A stretch of DNA of 64,000 bases. Origin: Minisyncoccia bacterium (lineage in GTDB: Bacteria; Patescibacteriota; Minisyncoccia; Phycocordibacterales; JAKFXT01). The position numbers and the translations under genes are program-made. This document shows, in pieces, positions 1,007-54,241 of this stretch. Position 1 is the stretch's first letter, and every line of letters begins with the position of its first letter. The stretch lies in assembly GCA_041485465.1 (NCBI GenBank), contig JBGPJO010000001.1, positions 102,190-166,189 of the forward strand, given 5' to 3'. The notes under the pieces were generated by a model. It saw nothing but the letters and a program-made list of their open reading frames with translations, searched no databases and had not been told where the DNA came from.

Positions 1007-1921
1007 ATGGCTGTCCCCGCAACAATTCTATTTTATAGAGTACAATGTATTCCCATGAAGAATCCGCGAAAAATCCTGCCTGATGAATTTCCGCCGCTTC
1101 TAAAAGAAATTCCCGATGCCCCTAAATTTCTCTATATAGAAGGAGAACTGCCGGATCCTCTTGAACACACCTATCTTGCAGTTGTCGGTTCAAGAAAATA
1201 TTCGCGCTACGGGGAAGATGTATGTGGAAAGTTAATCGAGGGCCTGCGGGGCCATTCTATTGTTATAGTTTCCGGACTTGCGCTTGGAATCGACTCTATC
1301 GCCCACGAGGCAGCGCTTGAAGCAAACCTTAAAACAACTGCCATTCCCGGCTCGGGACTAGATGATGCGGTTCTCTATCCGGCAAGCAATAAGAAACTGG
1401 CTAAAAAAATACTTGATCAGGGTGGAGCATTACTTTCCGAGTTCGAGCCGAATTTTCGAGCAACGCCCTATGCTTTCCCGCAACGCAACCGAATCATGGC
1501 TGGCATTTCAAAAGCAGTACTCGTGATTGAGGCTGAAAAGAAGTCGGGGACGCTTATCACGGCACGTCTTGCACTTAATTACAACCGGGACGTGTTGGCC
1601 GTACCCGGATCGATTTTTTCAAAAACATCCGAGGGACCGCACCAGCTTATTAAAAATGGCGCAACTCCAGTAACGGAAAGTAAGGAAATCCTTGAAGCCC
1701 TTGGGTTTTCAGTTGAAAATCTTTCTTCTGAAACGACTCTTGAAATCGAAAACTGCTCTCCGGAAGAAAAAAGAATTCTCGAACTCCTCCGCGAGCCCCT
1801 TCCCAAGGACGAACTTATCCGTAAAGCTTCTCTTCCGACACATGCGGTAAGCGCGCTTCTTTCCATGCTTGAAATAAAAGGAATCATAAAAGAAAGCGGC
1901 GGAGAAATTCGGCGCCTGTAA
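1007..1921 (+). CDS. dprA: DNA processing protein DprA/Smf (alternative start at Met 1055, MKNPRK)
   Basis: Motifs VVGSRKYSRYGEDVCGKL, SGLALGIDSIAHEAAL, RNRIMAGIS and a C-terminal winged-helix-like tail. Classic dprA-topA synteny. Confidence 0.85.
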   Translation: MAVPATILFYRVQCIPMKNPRKILPDEFPPLLKEIPDAPKFLYIEGELPDPLEHTYLAVVGSRKYSRYGEDVCGKLIEGLRGHSIVIVSGLALGIDSIAHEAALEANLKTTAIPGSGLDDAVLYPASNKKLAKKILDQGGALLSEFEPNFRATPYAFPQRNRIMAGISKAVLVIEAEKKSGTLITARLALNYNRDVLAVPGSIFSKTSEGPHQLIKNGATPVTESKEILEALGFSVENLSSETTLEIENCSPEEKRILELLREPLPKDELIRKASLPTHAVSALLSMLEIKGIIKESGGEIRRL

Positions 1922-1974: not shown

Positions 1975-4152
1975 ATGAGATTGTTAATTGTCGAATCCCC
2001 CGCAAAAGCTAAAACGATTGAAAAATACTTGGGCGATGACTTTACCGTCCGCGCCTCAGTCGGGCACATCCGCGATCTGCCAAAAAAAAATAAAGACGCC
2101 ATCGATATCGGTGGCGGTTTTGTACCCAAGTACGTCACCGTCGCCGGCAAGGAAAAAGTTATCCATGAGCTTATAGGATTAGCAAAAGAGGCTGATGAGA
2201 TCTATCTTGCAACCGACCCCGACCGCGAAGGAGAAGCGATTGCCTGGCACATCAAGGAAGCAATCGGCTTAAAGAACCCGAAGCGGATTGTCTTCCACGA
2301 AATCACCGAGGAAGCGCTAAAAGAAGCGCTTGAACATCCCCGGAAAATCGATATGAAATTAAAAGAGGCGCAGGAAGCTCGCCGCGTGCTTGATCGCCTC
2401 GTTGGTTATGATCTTTCAGGGCTTATTTGGAGAAAAGTGCGTTATGGTCTCTCGGCCGGACGCGTCCAGTCGCCGGCACTTCGTATTATTCTCGAGCGAG
2501 AACGCGAAATCAGGGCTTTTACGAGCGAAAAGTTTTGGGTGATAACCGCGCTCGTTAAAACTGAAAAAGGTATTGATCTTACGCTCACCTGTGAGGAAGA
2601 ACCACGGGACGGAGACGAGGTTATCAAGATACTAACGGCCGGAAAGGCGGGCCCGTGGAGTATTTTTGATGTTACTGAGAGTGAAGCAAAGAGGAGTCCC
2701 CGGGCTCCCTTCACCACTTCGACGCTTCAGCAGTCGGCAAGTTCGCGCGTCGGTTTTTCGCCATCAAGGACAATGTCGGTTGCCCAGAAACTCTACGAAA
2801 ACGGCCTGATTACGTATATGAGAACTGACAGCACCTCAATTTCAAGCGCCGCTCAAAAAAATATTATCGACATGATACGGAAAGAGTTTGGCGAGATATA
2901 TGTTTCTCCCCGTATCTATAAAACAAAAAGTAGGAACGCCCAGGAAGCACACGAGGCGATTCGCCCTACCACTATCTCCCTTCGCGGTAGCGGCAGAACA
3001 GACGAGCAAAAAAAATTATATCGGCTGATTCACGAGCGGGCACTCTCCTCTCAAATGACCGACGCGAAAATCTTGCGAACTAAAGTGAGCTCACGTTGTG
3101 GCGACGGTACTATTCCCCCGTTTTCAGTAACCGGCTCGCGCGTGCTCTTTGACGGCTGGCTTAAAGCGGACCCACGCGCCCGCGGCGAGGATGTAGAATT
3201 GCCCGAAGTCAAAAAAGGAGAATCTTTATCGCTCGTCGAAATACATTCCGAAGAAAAGGCAACGGAGCCTCCTTCACGCTACACGGAAGCGGGACTTGTC
3301 AAAGAACTCGAAAAACGTGGCATCGGACGGCCCTCAACCTACGCTTCTATCCTTAAGACGCTCTCGGACCGCGGCTATGTCGAAAAAGTCAACCGGACTC
3401 TTACGCCAACAGACACGGGAGAAGTGGTTTCGACATTTCTTGAGAATAATTTCATCAAGTACATCAGTGATGATTTTACGGCTCATATGGAAGATGAACT
3501 TGATGATATCGCGCGCGGTGAGCGAAGCTATGAAAAAACACTGAAAGATTTTTACGATCCATTCCGCAAAGACGTCAAATCGAAAGAGAAGATCGAGAAA
3601 CTGACGAATCTCGGCCCGGTTCCGAAAGAGTTCAGGTGTCCAAAATGTAACGGCCCCATGATTTTCAAACTTTCCAAAAATGGCAAATTTATGAGTTGCG
3701 TCCGATTCCCCGAATGCGACGGTGCCAGGACAAACGAAGGGCGCGAACTCCAGGGGCCAAAATCGACCGGAAGAAAATGCCCGGATTGCCAAACGGGAAT
3801 CTTGGTTGAGCGTGAAGGACGCTTCGGCACGTTTATCGCCTGTTCGAATTATCCGAAATGCAAACATATTGAGAGCGACCCTGAAGAAGAAGCAAAAAAG
3901 AAAACCGGGGTGAAGTGTCCTGTCTGCGGTAAAGGAGAGTTGATGGAGCGACGGGGGCGTTTTGGGCTCTTTTATAGCTGTTCGAATTATCCGCGGTGCA
4001 AATATGCAATTAAAGCAAAACCAACCGGCAACATCTGCCCGACCTGCGGCTCGCTCATGATGGAGGGAACAAAAACCATTCCGGAGCGCTGTTCCGATAA
4101 GAATTGCCCGAACCATAATCCGCATAAATCTGATAAAGATAAAAAGAAATAA
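1975..4152 (+). CDS. topA: DNA topoisomerase I
   Basis: N-terminus MRLLIVESPAKAKTIEKYLG..VRASVGHIRDLP (TOPRIM), then the catalytic domain and several C-terminal CxxC zinc-ribbon repeats. Confidence 0.95.
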   Translation: MRLLIVESPAKAKTIEKYLGDDFTVRASVGHIRDLPKKNKDAIDIGGGFVPKYVTVAGKEKVIHELIGLAKEADEIYLATDPDREGEAIAWHIKEAIGLKNPKRIVFHEITEEALKEALEHPRKIDMKLKEAQEARRVLDRLVGYDLSGLIWRKVRYGLSAGRVQSPALRIILEREREIRAFTSEKFWVITALVKTEKGIDLTLTCEEEPRDGDEVIKILTAGKAGPWSIFDVTESEAKRSPRAPFTTSTLQQSASSRVGFSPSRTMSVAQKLYENGLITYMRTDSTSISSAAQKNIIDMIRKEFGEIYVSPRIYKTKSRNAQEAHEAIRPTTISLRGSGRTDEQKKLYRLIHERALSSQMTDAKILRTKVSSRCGDGTIPPFSVTGSRVLFDGWLKADPRARGEDVELPEVKKGESLSLVEIHSEEKATEPPSRYTEAGLVKELEKRGIGRPSTYASILKTLSDRGYVEKVNRTLTPTDTGEVVSTFLENNFIKYISDDFTAHMEDELDDIARGERSYEKTLKDFYDPFRKDVKSKEKIEKLTNLGPVPKEFRCPKCNGPMIFKLSKNGKFMSCVRFPECDGARTNEGRELQGPKSTGRKCPDCQTGILVEREGRFGTFIACSNYPKCKHIESDPEEEAKKKTGVKCPVCGKGELMERRGRFGLFYSCSNYPRCKYAIKAKPTGNICPTCGSLMMEGTKTIPERCSDKNCPNHNPHKSDKDKKK

Positions 4153-38162: not shown

Positions 38163-38657
38163 CTATAGCTGAATTGTATCCCCGATTTTAATTCCCTTTT
38201 CTTTCGCAAAACCAGCATCAACCTCAACTACGTAGCGCGCCTTATTTTTCGGCTCAAATATTTTTGGATATGTGTCGGGGCTAAGATTTTCAGAAATGTC
38301 GACAACTTTTAAATCGTCTCCTACCCAAATAATATCAATGCTAAATTTCATTTCTTTCATCCAAAACTGGTATCTGTCAGCGTAGTCAAAGACGAAAAGC
38401 ATTCCTTGATCTTGGACGAGTTTTTCACGTCCTGAAAGTCCCTGCTCGCGCATTATAGGAGTATCCTCCACTTCCACCTTAATTATCGTCGTTCCAATTA
38501 TTATAGTTTTCTCAAGAGGAGAACCACCCGGGAAAACGGAGTCTAAATTATTGGCGCTGTCGCTTGTCAGGGTGTCTTGATGAACATCTACAAACAATAA
38601 CCCCGCGACAATCACTGCCGATCCGAAGATTAAAATTTTACCAATGCTTTCTTTCAT
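38163..38657 (-). CDS. DUF192-domain secreted/membrane protein
   Basis: N-terminal TM, then GLSGRE..GMLFVF.....FWMKEM.FS.DIIWV..D..VV.I..........P.....YVVEV.AGF, which matches DUF192 (COG1430). Confidence 0.7.
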   Translation of the reverse strand: MKESIGKILIFGSAVIVAGLLFVDVHQDTLTSDSANNLDSVFPGGSPLEKTIIIGTTIIKVEVEDTPIMREQGLSGREKLVQDQGMLFVFDYADRYQFWMKEMKFSIDIIWVGDDLKVVDISENLSPDTYPKIFEPKNKARYVVEVDAGFAKEKGIKIGDTIQL

Positions 38658-38725
38658 GTCTTGTGCGGTGAGGGTCGGTCTGGAACCAACCCGCTCTCAT
38701 CAGTATAAGGGTATTCCAGAGAGCA
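38658..38725. repeat. Copy A of a ~65-nt conserved structured element, immediately 5' of the DUF192 start
   Basis: tgcggtgagggtcggtctggaaccaacccgCTCTCatcagtataagggtattccaGAGAG, compared with copy B. Confidence 0.6.
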
Positions 38726-38791
38726 AGCGTGTCGGCAAAAACTACGAGGAACGGTCGGAATCCTAAGTGAGAAAGAAGACGGCGGCAAATG

Positions 38792-39082
38792 TTAGAGATG
38801 GAAAAAGAAAACAGGAGCACATGCCGCAAGTGCGGCAACGATTTGAATCGCCAGAACAAAGAGCGCTTGCACGGGTCTTTGCGGCAACCATCTTATAGCG
38901 AAAAATGACACCATCAGTACTTCTAAAACCACCCAAATCTGAAAGAGATGTGCGCCCGTTCCCTCATCCGGCTCGCGGACGGGAGCGCCGAAGATTGCAA
39001 TACCAAAAACCCACGCCGCCAAAACGAGGAGGGATATTACGATTGGAATCCAAGCGCTCGGTTGTTTCAGTAGTGAGTTCAT
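38792..39082 (-). CDS. Hypothetical small membrane protein (96 aa, three predicted TM helices)
   Basis: Hydrophobic helices IPIVISLLVLAAWVFGIAIF, FQIWVVLEVLMVSFFAI and LFVLAIQIVAALAACAPVFFF; preceded by repeat copy B. Confidence 0.45.
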   Translation of the reverse strand: MNSLLKQPSAWIPIVISLLVLAAWVFGIAIFGAPVREPDEGTGAHLFQIWVVLEVLMVSFFAIRWLPQRPVQALFVLAIQIVAALAACAPVFFFHL

Positions 39083-39162: not shown

Positions 39163-39232
39163 TTTTTGCGGTGAGGCTCGGTCAGGAACCAACCCGTTCC
39201 AAGCAATGTAAGGGTTTCTTGGCGAGTTAGCG
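39163..39232. repeat. Copy B of the ~65-nt conserved structured element
   Basis: tgcggtgaggctcggtcaggaaccaacccgttCCAAGcaatgtaagggtttCTTGGcgag. The hairpin stem covaries with copy A (ctctc/gagag versus ccaag/cttgg). Confidence 0.6.
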
Positions 39233-39345: not shown

Positions 39346-39945
39346 TTGGAGATGTTTGAAAGAAAACAAGCTGCCGTTCCGGTGATTCCCCTACAACGTC
39401 CGACTCCGCGTTTGGCGATCGTTGGAAGCGAATTGCTCGGTCCATATGAGGCGATTGCACGGGAATTGAACTACAGTCCCGCCCATCTCCTCCAAGAGCA
39501 ACTGCTTCGGTTTCTCGCGGAGAACCAGATCCAGATCTACGATTACGATGCGGTCGACCATTATTTGGCCGCCATTGCCGAGAAGGTCGGAAAGGTTTGG
39601 GTCTGGCGCCCGTTGCGCAAGCAAGACACGCTGGACTGGAAGAATGAAAATGGCCACTGCCATTGGTGGGGACGAGCGCCAACCGGCGAGACAGGCCATG
39701 TGACCGCGGGCCACGGCAGTTGTCGGGCCAATGAGTGGACCTATCGTCCGTATCATCATGCAGTACCAGCGCCAATCCTGTGGAACGCCAAAAAAATCCA
39801 CGACGAATTCGGCGAGCGCGTGAAGTTCTTCGTCAGCGACTATGCCGTTCCAAAGCCCGATCCGTTCATCATGGTGACAGCACAGGACGTCGACAAGATC
39901 ATCTTCGGCGTCTGGGACGAACCAAGTTTCGGCACCAACAATTGA
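39346..39945 (+). CDS. Hypothetical protein in a GC-rich (about 55-58%) segment, probably horizontally acquired
   Basis: RBS ggag 4 nt upstream of the ATG; composition differs from flanking DNA (about 43-48% GC); no recognisable domain (WVWRPLRKQD..NGHCHWWG..). Confidence 0.4.
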   Translation: MEMFERKQAAVPVIPLQRPTPRLAIVGSELLGPYEAIARELNYSPAHLLQEQLLRFLAENQIQIYDYDAVDHYLAAIAEKVGKVWVWRPLRKQDTLDWKNENGHCHWWGRAPTGETGHVTAGHGSCRANEWTYRPYHHAVPAPILWNAKKIHDEFGERVKFFVSDYAVPKPDPFIMVTAQDVDKIIFGVWDEPSFGTNN

Positions 39946-40041
39946 TCGACACGACATCGATCGTAGAGCTCCGCACAATCGCGGGGCTCTTTTCTTTTTG
40001 ATGCGTTTCGGTCGCGTAACACCGTTTCACTAGACTACGGA

Positions 40042-40059
40042 GGTGAGAGGATTCGGTCA
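40042..40059. repeat. 18-nt exact duplicate of the tRNA-Ser(CGA) 3' end (cggaggtgagaggattcg), 155 bp from the tRNA
   Basis: Identical to 40217-40234 in the same orientation; att-like remnant. Confidence 0.6.
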
Positions 40060-40213
40060 CGAGTCACTAAGTCTTTTGTCTCACTTCGCTCACAAAAGTC
40101 TAAGTGCTCTCGACCCCGCCTCGGCGCTTCATCGTCCCCCGGACGCGCGCCTGCGACTTTCGAATCCTATCACTATAGTAATTTTCAGTATCAGAAGACA
40201 CTAAAAATTTCTA

Positions 40214-40303
40214 TGGCGGAGGTGAGAGGATTCGAACCTCTGATAGAGTTTCCCCTATACCGCATTTCGAGTGCGGCGCCTTCGACCACTCAGCCACACC
40301 TCC
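40214..40303 (-). tRNA. tRNA-Ser(CGA), type II, CCA encoded
   Basis: Reverse complement gives ggaggtgtggctgagtggtcgaaggc...cuCGAaa...long variable arm...ggttcgaatcctctcacctccgcca. Confidence 0.8.
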
Positions 40304-40385
40304 CAAAAGCCCCTGCAGGCTAGCATTTTTTTGCTGTTTTTACAAAAAATGGTATAGTGTGCGCCTGAACTTTCGAAATTTACAT

Positions 40386-40459
40386 GGCGCCATCGTCTAG
40401 CCTGGTTAGGACAGCGGCTTTTCAAGCCGTCAACCCGGGTTCAAATCCCGGTGGCGTCA
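40386..40459 (+). tRNA. tRNA-Glu(TTC)
   Basis: ggcgccatcgtctagcctggttaggacagcggcuuUUCaagccgtcaacccgggttcaaatcccggtggcgtca. Confidence 0.8.
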
Positions 40460-40483
40460 CCAAAAAAATATCTGGTTTTTTGC

Positions 40484-40740
40484 TTGACATAAATTCCCCA
40501 AAGAGTAATATCCCTAAAGGTCTTGGGGGGTCAGGGAAAATCATCAAATGGGGCACCGAGCTGAGGCGGCGACCAATTGGCGCTCCATTCCTGGAGTACC
40601 GGCGGTTTGGAAGAGAAATCTTTCGAAGTCCTTAGGGACTGCTTAGCCCAGAGGCTCATACTTAATCTTTGAGATTTCCCCTGTTCTCCCCCCGGGACCG
40701 ACCCACAAGGCTACTCACACCAAACGTGCGTGGCCTTTTT
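40484..40740 (+). ncRNA. Candidate ~220-nt structured small RNA (6S-like long irregular helix; SRP RNA not excluded) with its own promoter and terminator
   Basis: Promoter ttgaca-N16-taatat at 40484-40511. 5' GGGGGGUCAGGGAAAAUC (40532-) pairs with GAUUUCCCCUGUUCUCCCCCC (40693-), closing a ~180-nt imperfect helix. Terminal hairpin plus T7 at 40715-40740, directly abutting the tsaD ATG. Confidence 0.35.
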
Positions 40741-40742
40741 TC

Positions 40743-41924
40743 ATGAAAATACTGGCAATTGAAACGAGTTGTGACGAAACGGCTGTCGCGATTTTGGAAA
40801 TATTGGAAAAAAAGACTTTTACCGAAGTGAACATTTTAGGAAATGGCTTGCTGTCCCAAACAGGCATTCACGCGCTTTTGGGCGGAGTCGTCCCTTCTCT
40901 TGCAAAACGCGAGCACGCGAATAATTTAATTCCGATGCTCACTGTTGCGCTTCTTGAAGCAAAGTGGCTTCAACCAAAAATTTCAAAAAACAATTTTGAT
41001 AAAAAAACCGAAAACACACTCAAAAAACTTTTTTCCCATGAGCCTGATCTATTCGAAGCTTTTATAGAATTCATCCCGACAATTCAGAAACCGAAAATTG
41101 ACGTTATCGCGGTGACGGCGGGACCAGGTCTTGAGCCGGCGCTCTGGGTCGGCATTAATTTTGCGAAAGCCCTTTCTTTTGTTTTTAACAAACTGGTCAT
41201 TCCCATAAACCACATGGAGGGGCACATTCTTTCTTCCCTTCTTATTCAAAAAAGCGGGGACAATTTTATTTTAGAAAAACCGCAATTCCCCATGCTTTCG
41301 CTTCTCATTTCAGGCGGCCATACCGAGCTTGTCCTCGCAAAAAAGTCCGGCTCATACAAGATTATCGGCGAAACAAGAGACGATGCCGTTGGGGAGGCAT
41401 TCGACAAAGTGGCGCGAATGCTTAGTTTCCCCTACCCTGGCGGCCCTCACGTGAGCAAACTTGCTGAGGCGGCACGAAAAGAGAAGATTGTGAGCGAATA
41501 CCCCTTGCCCCGCCCCATGCTTAGAAGCGACGATTTCAATTTTTCTTTCGCCGGCCTTAAAACCGCTGTTCTCTATACCTTAAAAAAAACCGGAGAAATC
41601 ACTGAAGATATAAAAATGCAAATTGCCCGGGAATTCGAAGATGCCGTAACCGAGGTATTGGTAACCAAAACCAGAAAAGCGCTTAAAAAAACTGGGGCTA
41701 AAACCCTTGCCGTAGGCGGCGGCGTGATCGCCAACAAAAATATCAGAGTAAAGATCGATAAAATGATTTCGCGGGAATTTCCTGACGTAAAACTGTATCT
41801 GCCGACGCCGAACCTCACCACCGACAATGCTGTGATGATAGGCCTTGCTGGTTATTTCAGATCAAAAGACAAAAAGCTTTCGACTAAAAAGATAGTCGCC
41901 AACGGCAGTTGGCGACTTGAATGA
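40743..41924 (+). CDS. tsaD: tRNA N6-adenosine threonylcarbamoyltransferase TsaD/Kae1 (with an internal insertion)
   Basis: MKILAIETSCDETAVAIL, HMEGHILS, ISGGHTEL, ..GGGVIAN. Confidence 0.85.
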   Translation: MKILAIETSCDETAVAILEILEKKTFTEVNILGNGLLSQTGIHALLGGVVPSLAKREHANNLIPMLTVALLEAKWLQPKISKNNFDKKTENTLKKLFSHEPDLFEAFIEFIPTIQKPKIDVIAVTAGPGLEPALWVGINFAKALSFVFNKLVIPINHMEGHILSSLLIQKSGDNFILEKPQFPMLSLLISGGHTELVLAKKSGSYKIIGETRDDAVGEAFDKVARMLSFPYPGGPHVSKLAEAARKEKIVSEYPLPRPMLRSDDFNFSFAGLKTAVLYTLKKTGEITEDIKMQIAREFEDAVTEVLVTKTRKALKKTGAKTLAVGGGVIANKNIRVKIDKMISREFPDVKLYLPTPNLTTDNAVMIGLAGYFRSKDKKLSTKKIVANGSWRLE

Positions 41925-42211
41925 TTCTTTAAAAGAAAATTCAGAGAGCGATGAATACTTCCGTCTCGATGATTTTGAGCTGTTCGGGTGTTGCATAGAG
42001 ACCAGCTTGTGTAAGTCCCCTTTCGATTGCAAGACCAACCAGAATTTCTTTGGATCCTCGGGAACTATCTCCGAGTTTTTTGAAAAACCCTTGGTGCCAC
42101 GAAAGTCTTTCAGATTCCGATGACATAGCGTTCTATCCCCTATTTTTGAAACTCTTTTCTTAGTATAACACCTTTTGAAATAGGGCTAATTCTCGTGCTA
42201 TTATTGCCTTT

Positions 42212-53892: not shown

Positions 53893-54235
53893 GTTCTTTG
53901 CTGAATGGTCGCCGTGCGTCATAAGCGTATGGAGGAAAGTCCGAACACAGCCGTCGCGAAAGTGGCGGAGCAGGGTAGCGGGTAACGCCCGTCCACCGCA
54001 AGGTGCGAGATGCGAACAGTGACGCCTGAAGCGAAAGTCTAAGGCACCCCTTCGGGGTGAACCCTATGGTAACTTAGGGAGTGAAACGGCAAAACTCTTA
54101 CCTCTGTGCAAGGCCGTGTCCGCCGCAAGGCGGAAGTGCCGCTTGAGCCCGAGAGCAATCGAGGGCCTAGATAAATGACTATTCACGCTCCGCCTAAGGC
54201 GGGGCGAGACAGAATTCGGCTTATAGGTAAAGAAC
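53893..54235 (+). ncRNA. rnpB: RNase P RNA (bacterial type A-like)
   Basis: GGAGGAAAGUCCGAACACAG, GCAGGGUAGCGGGUAACGCCCG, ACAGAAUUCGGCUUAUAGG; 5' gttctttgc pairs with 3' gtaaagaac (P1). Confidence 0.85.
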
Positions 54236-54241
54236 ATAATG

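Follow-up and report, generated by a model that had tools for sequence, protein, structure and literature searches.

Between the genes for tRNA-Glu(UUC) and tsaD, the window analysed here (the whole of a 64-kb stretch of DNA) contains a short region in which a promoter, a predicted rod-shaped RNA and an intrinsic terminator follow one another in the orientation of tsaD (Table 1). As judged by sequence comparison, its TsaD protein places the window in the Patescibacteria, and the closest TsaD proteins are only 59–69% identical to it. The Patescibacteria (Candidate Phyla Radiation) make up a large, mostly uncultured share of bacterial diversity; their genomes are tiny, few of their regulators are known, and what is known of their non-coding RNAs is, to our knowledge, almost confined to tRNA, rRNA, RNase P RNA, tmRNA and SRP RNA.

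Table 1. Features of the RNA locus in the window, and positions of the homologous RNAs on their own contigs.
Feature	Position	Strand	Remarks
tRNA-Glu(UUC)	40386–40462	+	Upstream neighbour, outside the RNA; part of the conserved neighbourhood
Sigma70-type promoter	40484–40511	+	-35 TTGACA 40484–40489, 16-nt spacer, -10 TAATAT 40506–40511
Rod-shaped RNA body (predicted), 183 nt	40518–40700	+	Six-segment closing rod P1–P6 and variable apical domain
P1, 5' strand, GGUCUUGGGGGG	40519–40530	+	Pairs with 40688–40699
5' strands of P2–P6	40532–40562	+	P2 40532–40536, P3 40538–40542, P4 40544–40548
P5 and P6, 5' side	40549–40552, 40558–40562	+	G-rich P5 UGGG, loop GCACC, P6 GAGCU
Variable apical domain	40563–40652	+	Junction with three hairpins in the window, 90 nt
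Conserved 3' strand, P6' to P2'	40653–40687	+	GGCUC-AUA-CUUA-AUC-UUUGA-GAUUU-C-CCCUG-UUCU
P1, 3' strand, CCCCCCGGGACC	40688–40699	+	Partner of 40519–40530
Intrinsic terminator	40707–40741	+	Bulged hairpin, then U6 40736–40741
tsaD	40743–41924	+	393 aa, PF00814; without SD motif and without its own -10 box
RNA of L083	about 1092–1243		ENA ERZ27247924 / JGI 3300032163; L085 is the same sequence
RNA of L169	about 2274–2449		GCA_021733565.1
RNA of L171	724–867		ERZ27284378
RNA of L173	607–797		SRR22372533

Organization of the unit and its homologues

The promoter, which the first-pass annotation of this DNA had already recognized, matches the consensus at 10 of 12 positions and is the sole promoter-like site within 40100–41100; transcription is predicted to start at A40518, about 7 nt past the -10 box. 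At the other end of the unit, 7–9 nt past the rod, the terminator stem runs from about 40707/40709 to 40735/40737 and folds with -14.3 kcal/mol on its own; a simple terminator scan left it unflagged because the stem is bulged and the loop is 7 nt long. The same annotation had described a hairpin with a run of seven Ts abutting the tsaD ATG without a spacer. The hairpin and the closeness are confirmed, but the run is of six Ts and one C (40742) stands between it and the ATG.

The 5' end of the transcript had also been proposed to pair with a segment about 170 nt downstream, and this pairing is both real and longer than claimed. Inward of P1 the rod continues through CAGGG/CCCUG, AAAUC/GAUUU, UCAAA/UUUGA, UGGG/CUUA and GAGCU/GGCUC, and P1–P6 together comprise about 36 pairs in the window copy. 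The minimum free energy (MFE) of 40518–40742 (225 nt) is -97 kcal/mol, compared with -74.6 ± 4.9 in dinucleotide shuffles (z = -4.6), and none of 200 shuffles folds as well. Two internal hairpins noted at first pass (ctcc-attcct-ggag and gucc-uuag-ggac) are present in the window MFE structure, as GCUCCA-UUCC-UGGAGU and AGUCC-UUAG-GGACU.

Eleven of the nearest TsaD proteins could be traced to contigs, and four of these contigs contain a promoter–rod–terminator unit directly 5' of tsaD or of a tsaD 5' remnant. All five copies have a -35 box (TTGACA, TTGACT or TTGCAC), a 16–17 nt spacer and a TAnnnT -10 box, with the foot of the helix 6–9 nt past the -10, at +1/+2, and a hairpin with a U-run 3–9 nt past the rod (terminators of -12 to -17.5 kcal/mol). 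Three of the homologues have fold z-scores of -4.5, -4.2 and -7.4. The RNA body is 144–191 nt long and the rod includes 29–37 pairs across the five copies; P1 is GC-rich and very stable (12–17 bp), P1–P4 form a covariation-supported helix of about 27–30 bp, and P5 is weak and G.U-rich, partly open only in the window copy. The family 3' strand consensus, aGA-GGCYY-AYA-CUNAA-..CUUUSAG..CCCCU, faces a G-rich 5' strand (UGGGG), and one G.U and one G-C pair of P5 do not vary among the five sequences. The apical domain is differently built in the homologues (44–101 nt): its MFE structure is a junction with three hairpins in the window and L173 and with two in L169, and is unbranched only in L171, and its loops (UUCC, GAAA and UUAG in the window, CAAC in L171) are unconserved.

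MAFFT misaligned the raw RNAs and was replaced by a hand alignment along the rod with N-padded cores. This alignment comprises five sequences of one narrow clade and is fitted to the structure by hand, which inflates its pair counts; over its 46 pairs, standard pairs occupy 89.9% of cells, compared with 73.1 ± 2.3% in column shuffles, and 23 pairs have changed on both sides, compared with 10.7 ± 2.4, with none of 500 shuffles reaching the observed pairing or double-change values. Sliding the 3' partners by 1–3 columns gives 29–59% paired cells and 0–6 double-changed pairs, and a four-sequence alignment agrees with the five-sequence result. P1 owes little to the hand-fitting because its alignment starts at the transcript ends and needs just one insertion, of one column, in L169; 8 of its 18 columns are double-changed (e.g. 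C-G/U-A and G-C/U-A/C-G). The rod is thus supported by covariation across related genomes. The conserved 3' strand could instead form a local hairpin with a 13-nt loop, which looked promising in L083 and L173, but this was rejected, with 61% of cells paired and no excess over shuffles.

A different account is that the element is non-functional or acts as DNA (a MITE-like palindrome, a recombination site or a rearrangement scar) and is only incidentally transcribed. Like ERIC, Correia and other palindromic repeats and MITEs, it is an imperfect intergenic palindrome (about 145–190 bp) at a rearrangement-prone locus, and this account draws on the signs of a recombination hot spot at this locus: a tRNA-Ser 3' end that recurs as a perfect 18-nt direct repeat and as an inverted copy, duplications of the tRNA-Glu 3' end in L171, L167 and L172, the tsaD 5' remnants of L083 and L171, and the patchy presence of the RNA itself. 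However, it differs from MITEs in being single copy, in the window and at every locus, in occupying one fixed place, and in having its own promoter and terminator at conserved fixed distances; neither dispersed copies nor DNA-level symmetry was found within the fetched loci and the 64-kb window. Its pairing is also strand-asymmetric: G.U accounts for 20 of 170 paired cells, and a covariance model built from four cores (R2) scores 46, 37 and 36 bits on the plus strand, compared with 24, 19 and 15 on the minus strand, which together indicate selection on a plus-strand RNA rather than on a DNA palindrome. With many compensatory changes and little sequence conservation as well, we regard the DNA-level account as very improbable.

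The rod RNA is absent 5' of tsaD in L081, L166, L167, L170, L172 and L174, and as these non-carriers are interleaved with carriers in the TsaD tree, its distribution is patchy. Neither the window RNA nor the L083 RNA, used as nhmmer queries on all loci, gave cross-matches, because the sequence similarity is too low. In a profile scan of genome contigs with TsaD, the matches listed are at most 55% identical and none has the RNA; a metagenome TsaD scan returned mostly relatives of 50–59% identity, likewise with none having it, the exception in identity being L086, which is the same contig as L084 and has only 102 nt 5' of tsaD. A descriptor (a terminal helix of 12–14 bp spanning 110–230 nt, closely preceded by a promoter and followed by a T-run) retrieved from about 1.06 Mb of fetched loci exactly the five known copies and a few false positives; one of the latter, L095:5124-5256, was discarded, lying inside an aminoacyl-tRNA synthetase ORF with a fold z of 0.2. 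R2 and a single-sequence covariance model (R1) recover only some known members, both missing L173 and L169 on the plus strand even when filters are off, and absence of the RNA elsewhere is only weakly established because the models are insensitive to long apical insertions. As far as could be seen from these sequences, the RNA is narrowly distributed, in a few related Patescibacteria, and so patchy an occurrence is more what would be expected of an accessory gene than of a housekeeping RNA like 6S.

Relation to tsaD

The absence of an SD motif before tsaD, noted at first pass, is true yet commonplace: 29 of the 33 long ORFs of the window lack an SD-like motif, with only four having one. Many window ORFs have a TAnnnT box 6–8 nt before the ATG (TACAAT, TATAGT, TATAAA), and leuS (42212) is preceded by TATTAT at 7 nt from its ATG; this arrangement suggests a genome dominated by leaderless mRNAs. 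The tsaD genes of the window and L173 are without a -10 box, with their ATG 1 and 0 nt past the U-run, respectively, and because most genes here have such a box, the tsaD transcript in these two genomes is probably supplied by read-through of the terminator.

In the other three loci tsaD is uncoupled from the RNA. L169 has a TATAAT 6 nt before the tsaD ATG, just past the terminator; L083 and L171 have, past the terminator, a 21–33 nt tsaD 5' remnant, a homologous insert of 105–140 nt and then the real tsaD, which has its own upstream region. The RNA unit is nonetheless intact in all three. When the terminator was forbidden in refolding, its 5' arm found no partners in any of the five copies and the rod was unchanged; with no alternative partner for this arm there is no RNA-based expression platform, and the terminators look constitutive in these models. 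The retention of the RNA where tsaD is uncoupled and the lack of an expression platform together favour an independent, trans-acting RNA. Neither a switching platform nor obligatory coupling to tsaD, as would be expected of a generic riboswitch or attenuator, is found, and the unit has the predicted properties of a generic stand-alone small-RNA gene: promoter, start, terminator, structure and no conserved ORF. With respect to the last, the 5' strand of the RNA contains an AUG in the window, L171 and L083, but this is ACG in L173 and AUA in L169 and the downstream frames differ; the internal AUG is therefore not part of a conserved ORF, and a small-protein reading was rejected.

The first-pass annotation had left two options, a bona fide small RNA or a structured leader controlling tsaD by termination. 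Five homologues with a promoter, a start at the helix foot, a terminator and a covarying rod argue for the former, as a predicted discrete species, and the latter is weakened by the absence of alternative pairing in five of five copies and the uncoupling of tsaD in L169, L083 and L171. A broader form of the leader, in which the rod binds a factor (a protein, a tRNA or a t6A-linked metabolite) and alters termination or initiation in cis, is rather unlikely in our judgement. Its attractions are positional: the RNA is always immediately 5' of tsaD or of a tsaD 5' remnant, the tsaD genes of the window and L173 must depend on the RNA promoter under this account, and the tight, conserved abutment of terminator and tsaD ATG (0–20 nt) could reflect a cis role. 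The 3' strand further includes an invariant CU with a variable base (CUU, CUC, CUA), followed by A in four of five copies, which has the look of a Leu codon, and leuS lies 3' of tsaD in the window and L083. However, no antiterminator pairing is available in any of the five copies, P1 is a very stable helix and in this differs from the P1 of a switch, just 3–9 nt lie between the rod and the terminator, no T-box or riboswitch model scores, and loci in which an insert or a separate TATAAT uncouples tsaD have kept the RNA all the same. The CUN bases pair with the conserved GGG, their third position covarying with its partner, and tsaD–leuS synteny occurs without the RNA too.

The T-box (RF00230) is the closest known leader in outline, with a long 5' hairpin followed by a terminator in operons that can include an aminoacyl-tRNA synthetase gene (here leuS), and the CUN-A string lies on the 3' strand of an interior segment of the rod. 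It is excluded as an identity, with no T-box sequence, antiterminator or Rfam match; the K-turn, AG bulge and distal loop motifs are also missing, Stem I of a T-box is far shorter than the helix of about 27 bp below the 'codon' of the rod, and the CUN of the rod is base-paired.

Known RNA families and the favoured reading

With Rfam 15, at gathering thresholds, the window yields 14 tRNAs and one weakly scoring RNase P RNA, and 40484–40742 is without a match. A permissive search of 40440–40800 (E ≤ 10) returned only meaningless eukaryotic matches, the whole window at E ≤ 0.5 had no 6S, SRP or tmRNA match, and in the four homologous loci at E ≤ 5 no Rfam family, 6S, SRP and T-box included, matched the RNA copies. 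The scans for the 6S, SRP and tmRNA families proposed at first pass therefore gave no match to the RNA on either the region or the window.

The RNA had been labelled '6S-like', and 6S RNA (ssrS, RF00013 and related) is its nearest functional analogue by comparison of features, although membership in that family is not supported. The two are alike in length (144–191 nt for the rod RNA) and in the long irregular closing helix formed by the 5' and 3' ends; both have a strong housekeeping-type promoter and form a discrete stable RNA, which for the rod RNA is predicted from sequence, and both stand directly before a protein gene able to receive read-through. In E. coli the 6S RNA gene is in tandem with a protein gene (ssrS–ygfA). 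A divergent 6S RNA, sequestering the sigma70 holoenzyme and templating pRNA, would also accommodate the weak, G.U-rich middle segment P5; no Rfam 6S match occurs in the 64-kb window, so that no canonical copy is known, and our literature searches on 6S and structured RNAs in Patescibacteria/CPR and on tsaD with 6S found nothing relevant, including no report of a 6S RNA in the Candidate Phyla Radiation. However, no copy matches a 6S model, and the large central bubble of 6S RNA (roughly a dozen or more nucleotides per strand, mostly single-stranded) is absent: pairing probabilities give internal loops of at most about 5x5 in L171, L173 and L169 and the P5 pairs covary, with the caveat that thermodynamic prediction can over-pair. 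The apex is also a three- or four-way junction in the window, L173 and L169, variable over 44–101 nt, rather than a continuous apical helix, and the distribution is narrow and patchy within the clade. Membership is unsupported because of the missing model match, the missing bubble and the branched, variable apex, and we consider a divergent 6S RNA decidedly improbable.

SRP RNA (4.5S, RF00169) is likewise hairpin-like, a rod with paired ends in which internal loops are conserved, and some copies of the rod RNA share a 3' tail ending in ACCC-like bases. The first-pass annotation judged a resemblance to domain IV to be a non-match, and we agree: the GNAR tetraloop and the AGCA/GGAA-type loops of domain IV (helix 8) are absent, no SRP model matches, and SRP RNA is most conserved at the apex, where the rod RNA is least conserved. 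Without the features of domain IV, SRP RNA identity is excluded. Upon inspection, a mimic of the anticodon loop of t6A substrates was discarded, there being no conserved U36-A37-A38, as were a K-turn, a retron, an IS110 bridge RNA and an integron attC site, whose defining motifs or partner genes are missing.

On this sequence evidence, we conclude that the locus is a real, conserved and structured small-RNA gene of no described family, with a predicted product of about 185–225 nt; it is a previously undescribed gene and defines a new, narrowly distributed candidate RNA family. As to function, a stable rod RNA that acts in trans, probably by binding protein, and whose terminator leaks into tsaD in some genomes is the reading we favour, with confidence somewhat above even. 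RNA polymerase would start near 40518 from the strong sigma70-type promoter, and the 183-nt RNA would fold into one long, stable, imperfect double-stranded rod with a variable apical domain on top, in which the conserved G-rich 5' strand faces the conserved AYA-CUNAA...CUUUSAG 3' strand. The constitutive intrinsic terminator would then end transcription and yield a discrete species of about 220 nt, whose action, probably in trans, would most plausibly be that of a stable RNA that binds or sequesters protein, and polymerases reading through the terminator would supply the tsaD transcript in the window genome and L173. A more specific proposal, that the rod is the RNA subunit or decoy of an unrecognised patescibacterial RNP, either a functional counterpart of 6S for a lineage without a reported 6S RNA or a dsRNA-like scaffold, seems to us quite unlikely; the scaffold version would be recognised via the invariant G.U/G-C step and the bulged AYA.

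Delimited from promoter to terminator, supported by covariation and without an Rfam match, the rod RNA offers a concrete candidate for a regulatory RNA specific to its lineage, and the locus may exemplify a tsaD in a leaderless-dominated genome that is fed by read-through from an upstream RNA gene. If the RNP proposal were true, it would represent a new regulatory RNA class specific to ultra-small bacteria dominated by leaderless mRNAs. The importance of the rod RNA is limited by the very narrow distribution so far (five contigs).

Neighbouring elements and rearrangements

Several other features of the surrounding DNA were noted. A 69-nt direct repeat (75% identity) at 38661–38729 and 39164–39232, starting TTGTGCGGTGAGGGTCGGTCTGGAACCAACCCG, flanks a small island between a DUF192 gene (38163–38657, minus strand) and tRNA-Ser. 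The island ORFs, one with a membrane-like look (38792–39082, minus) and one at 39346–39945 (plus), have no Pfam matches, and the island may be the remnant of an integrated element.

Just downstream of tRNA-Ser, which is on the minus strand, there is a second unannotated structured element (40038–40213, minus), which together with its upstream hairpin has a fold z of -5.8 and no Rfam match. Its end is the perfect 18-nt repeat mentioned above, in which 40038–40055 duplicates the 3' end of tRNA-Ser in direct orientation (identical to 40217–40234), and it includes the inverted copy of that end at 40159–40173. The core of the element (GCAGSC..GGCGAGGCGGGGUCG, a long hairpin, and UGUGACC) is kept beside tRNA-Glu at L169:1400-1547 (minus) and L171:476-640 (plus), and the element resembles a minihelix mimic or a small element associated with tRNA 3' ends.

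An insert of about 140–190 nt follows tRNA-Glu at L171:317-475, L167:2275-2470 and L172:20-170 and is absent from the window. At its start the 3' end of the tRNA is repeated in inverted orientation (UGACCCUA...CCGGGAGUCGAA) and at its close in direct orientation (GAUUCCCGGUAGGGUCA), so that the region can complete a tRNA-like fold in two ways (z = -8.9); ARAGORN and Rfam called only the normal tRNA in this region.

The region past the RNA terminator in L083 (1283–1387) and L171 (922–1063) contains the tsaD remnant, which in L171 (ATGAAAATCCTATCTATTGAAACATCCTGTGAC) reads MKILSIETSCD, followed by the homologous insert (..ACAGCAAAGCTSCCTAC..CGAGATGT..) and an intact tsaD with a diverged 5' end; remnant and insert are probably the scar of an allelic replacement or insertion at the tsaD start. 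Downstream, the spacer between tsaD and leuS (41925–42211, 287 nt) holds a 61-aa minus-strand ORF (41941–42126), and small minus-strand genes are also present 3' of tsaD in L166, L170, L171, L173 and L174. The RNase P RNA of the window (class A, 53893–54239, plus) scores 112 bits relative to a gathering threshold of 100 and its peripheral helices are shortened, as is typical of a lineage that is divergent and reduced.
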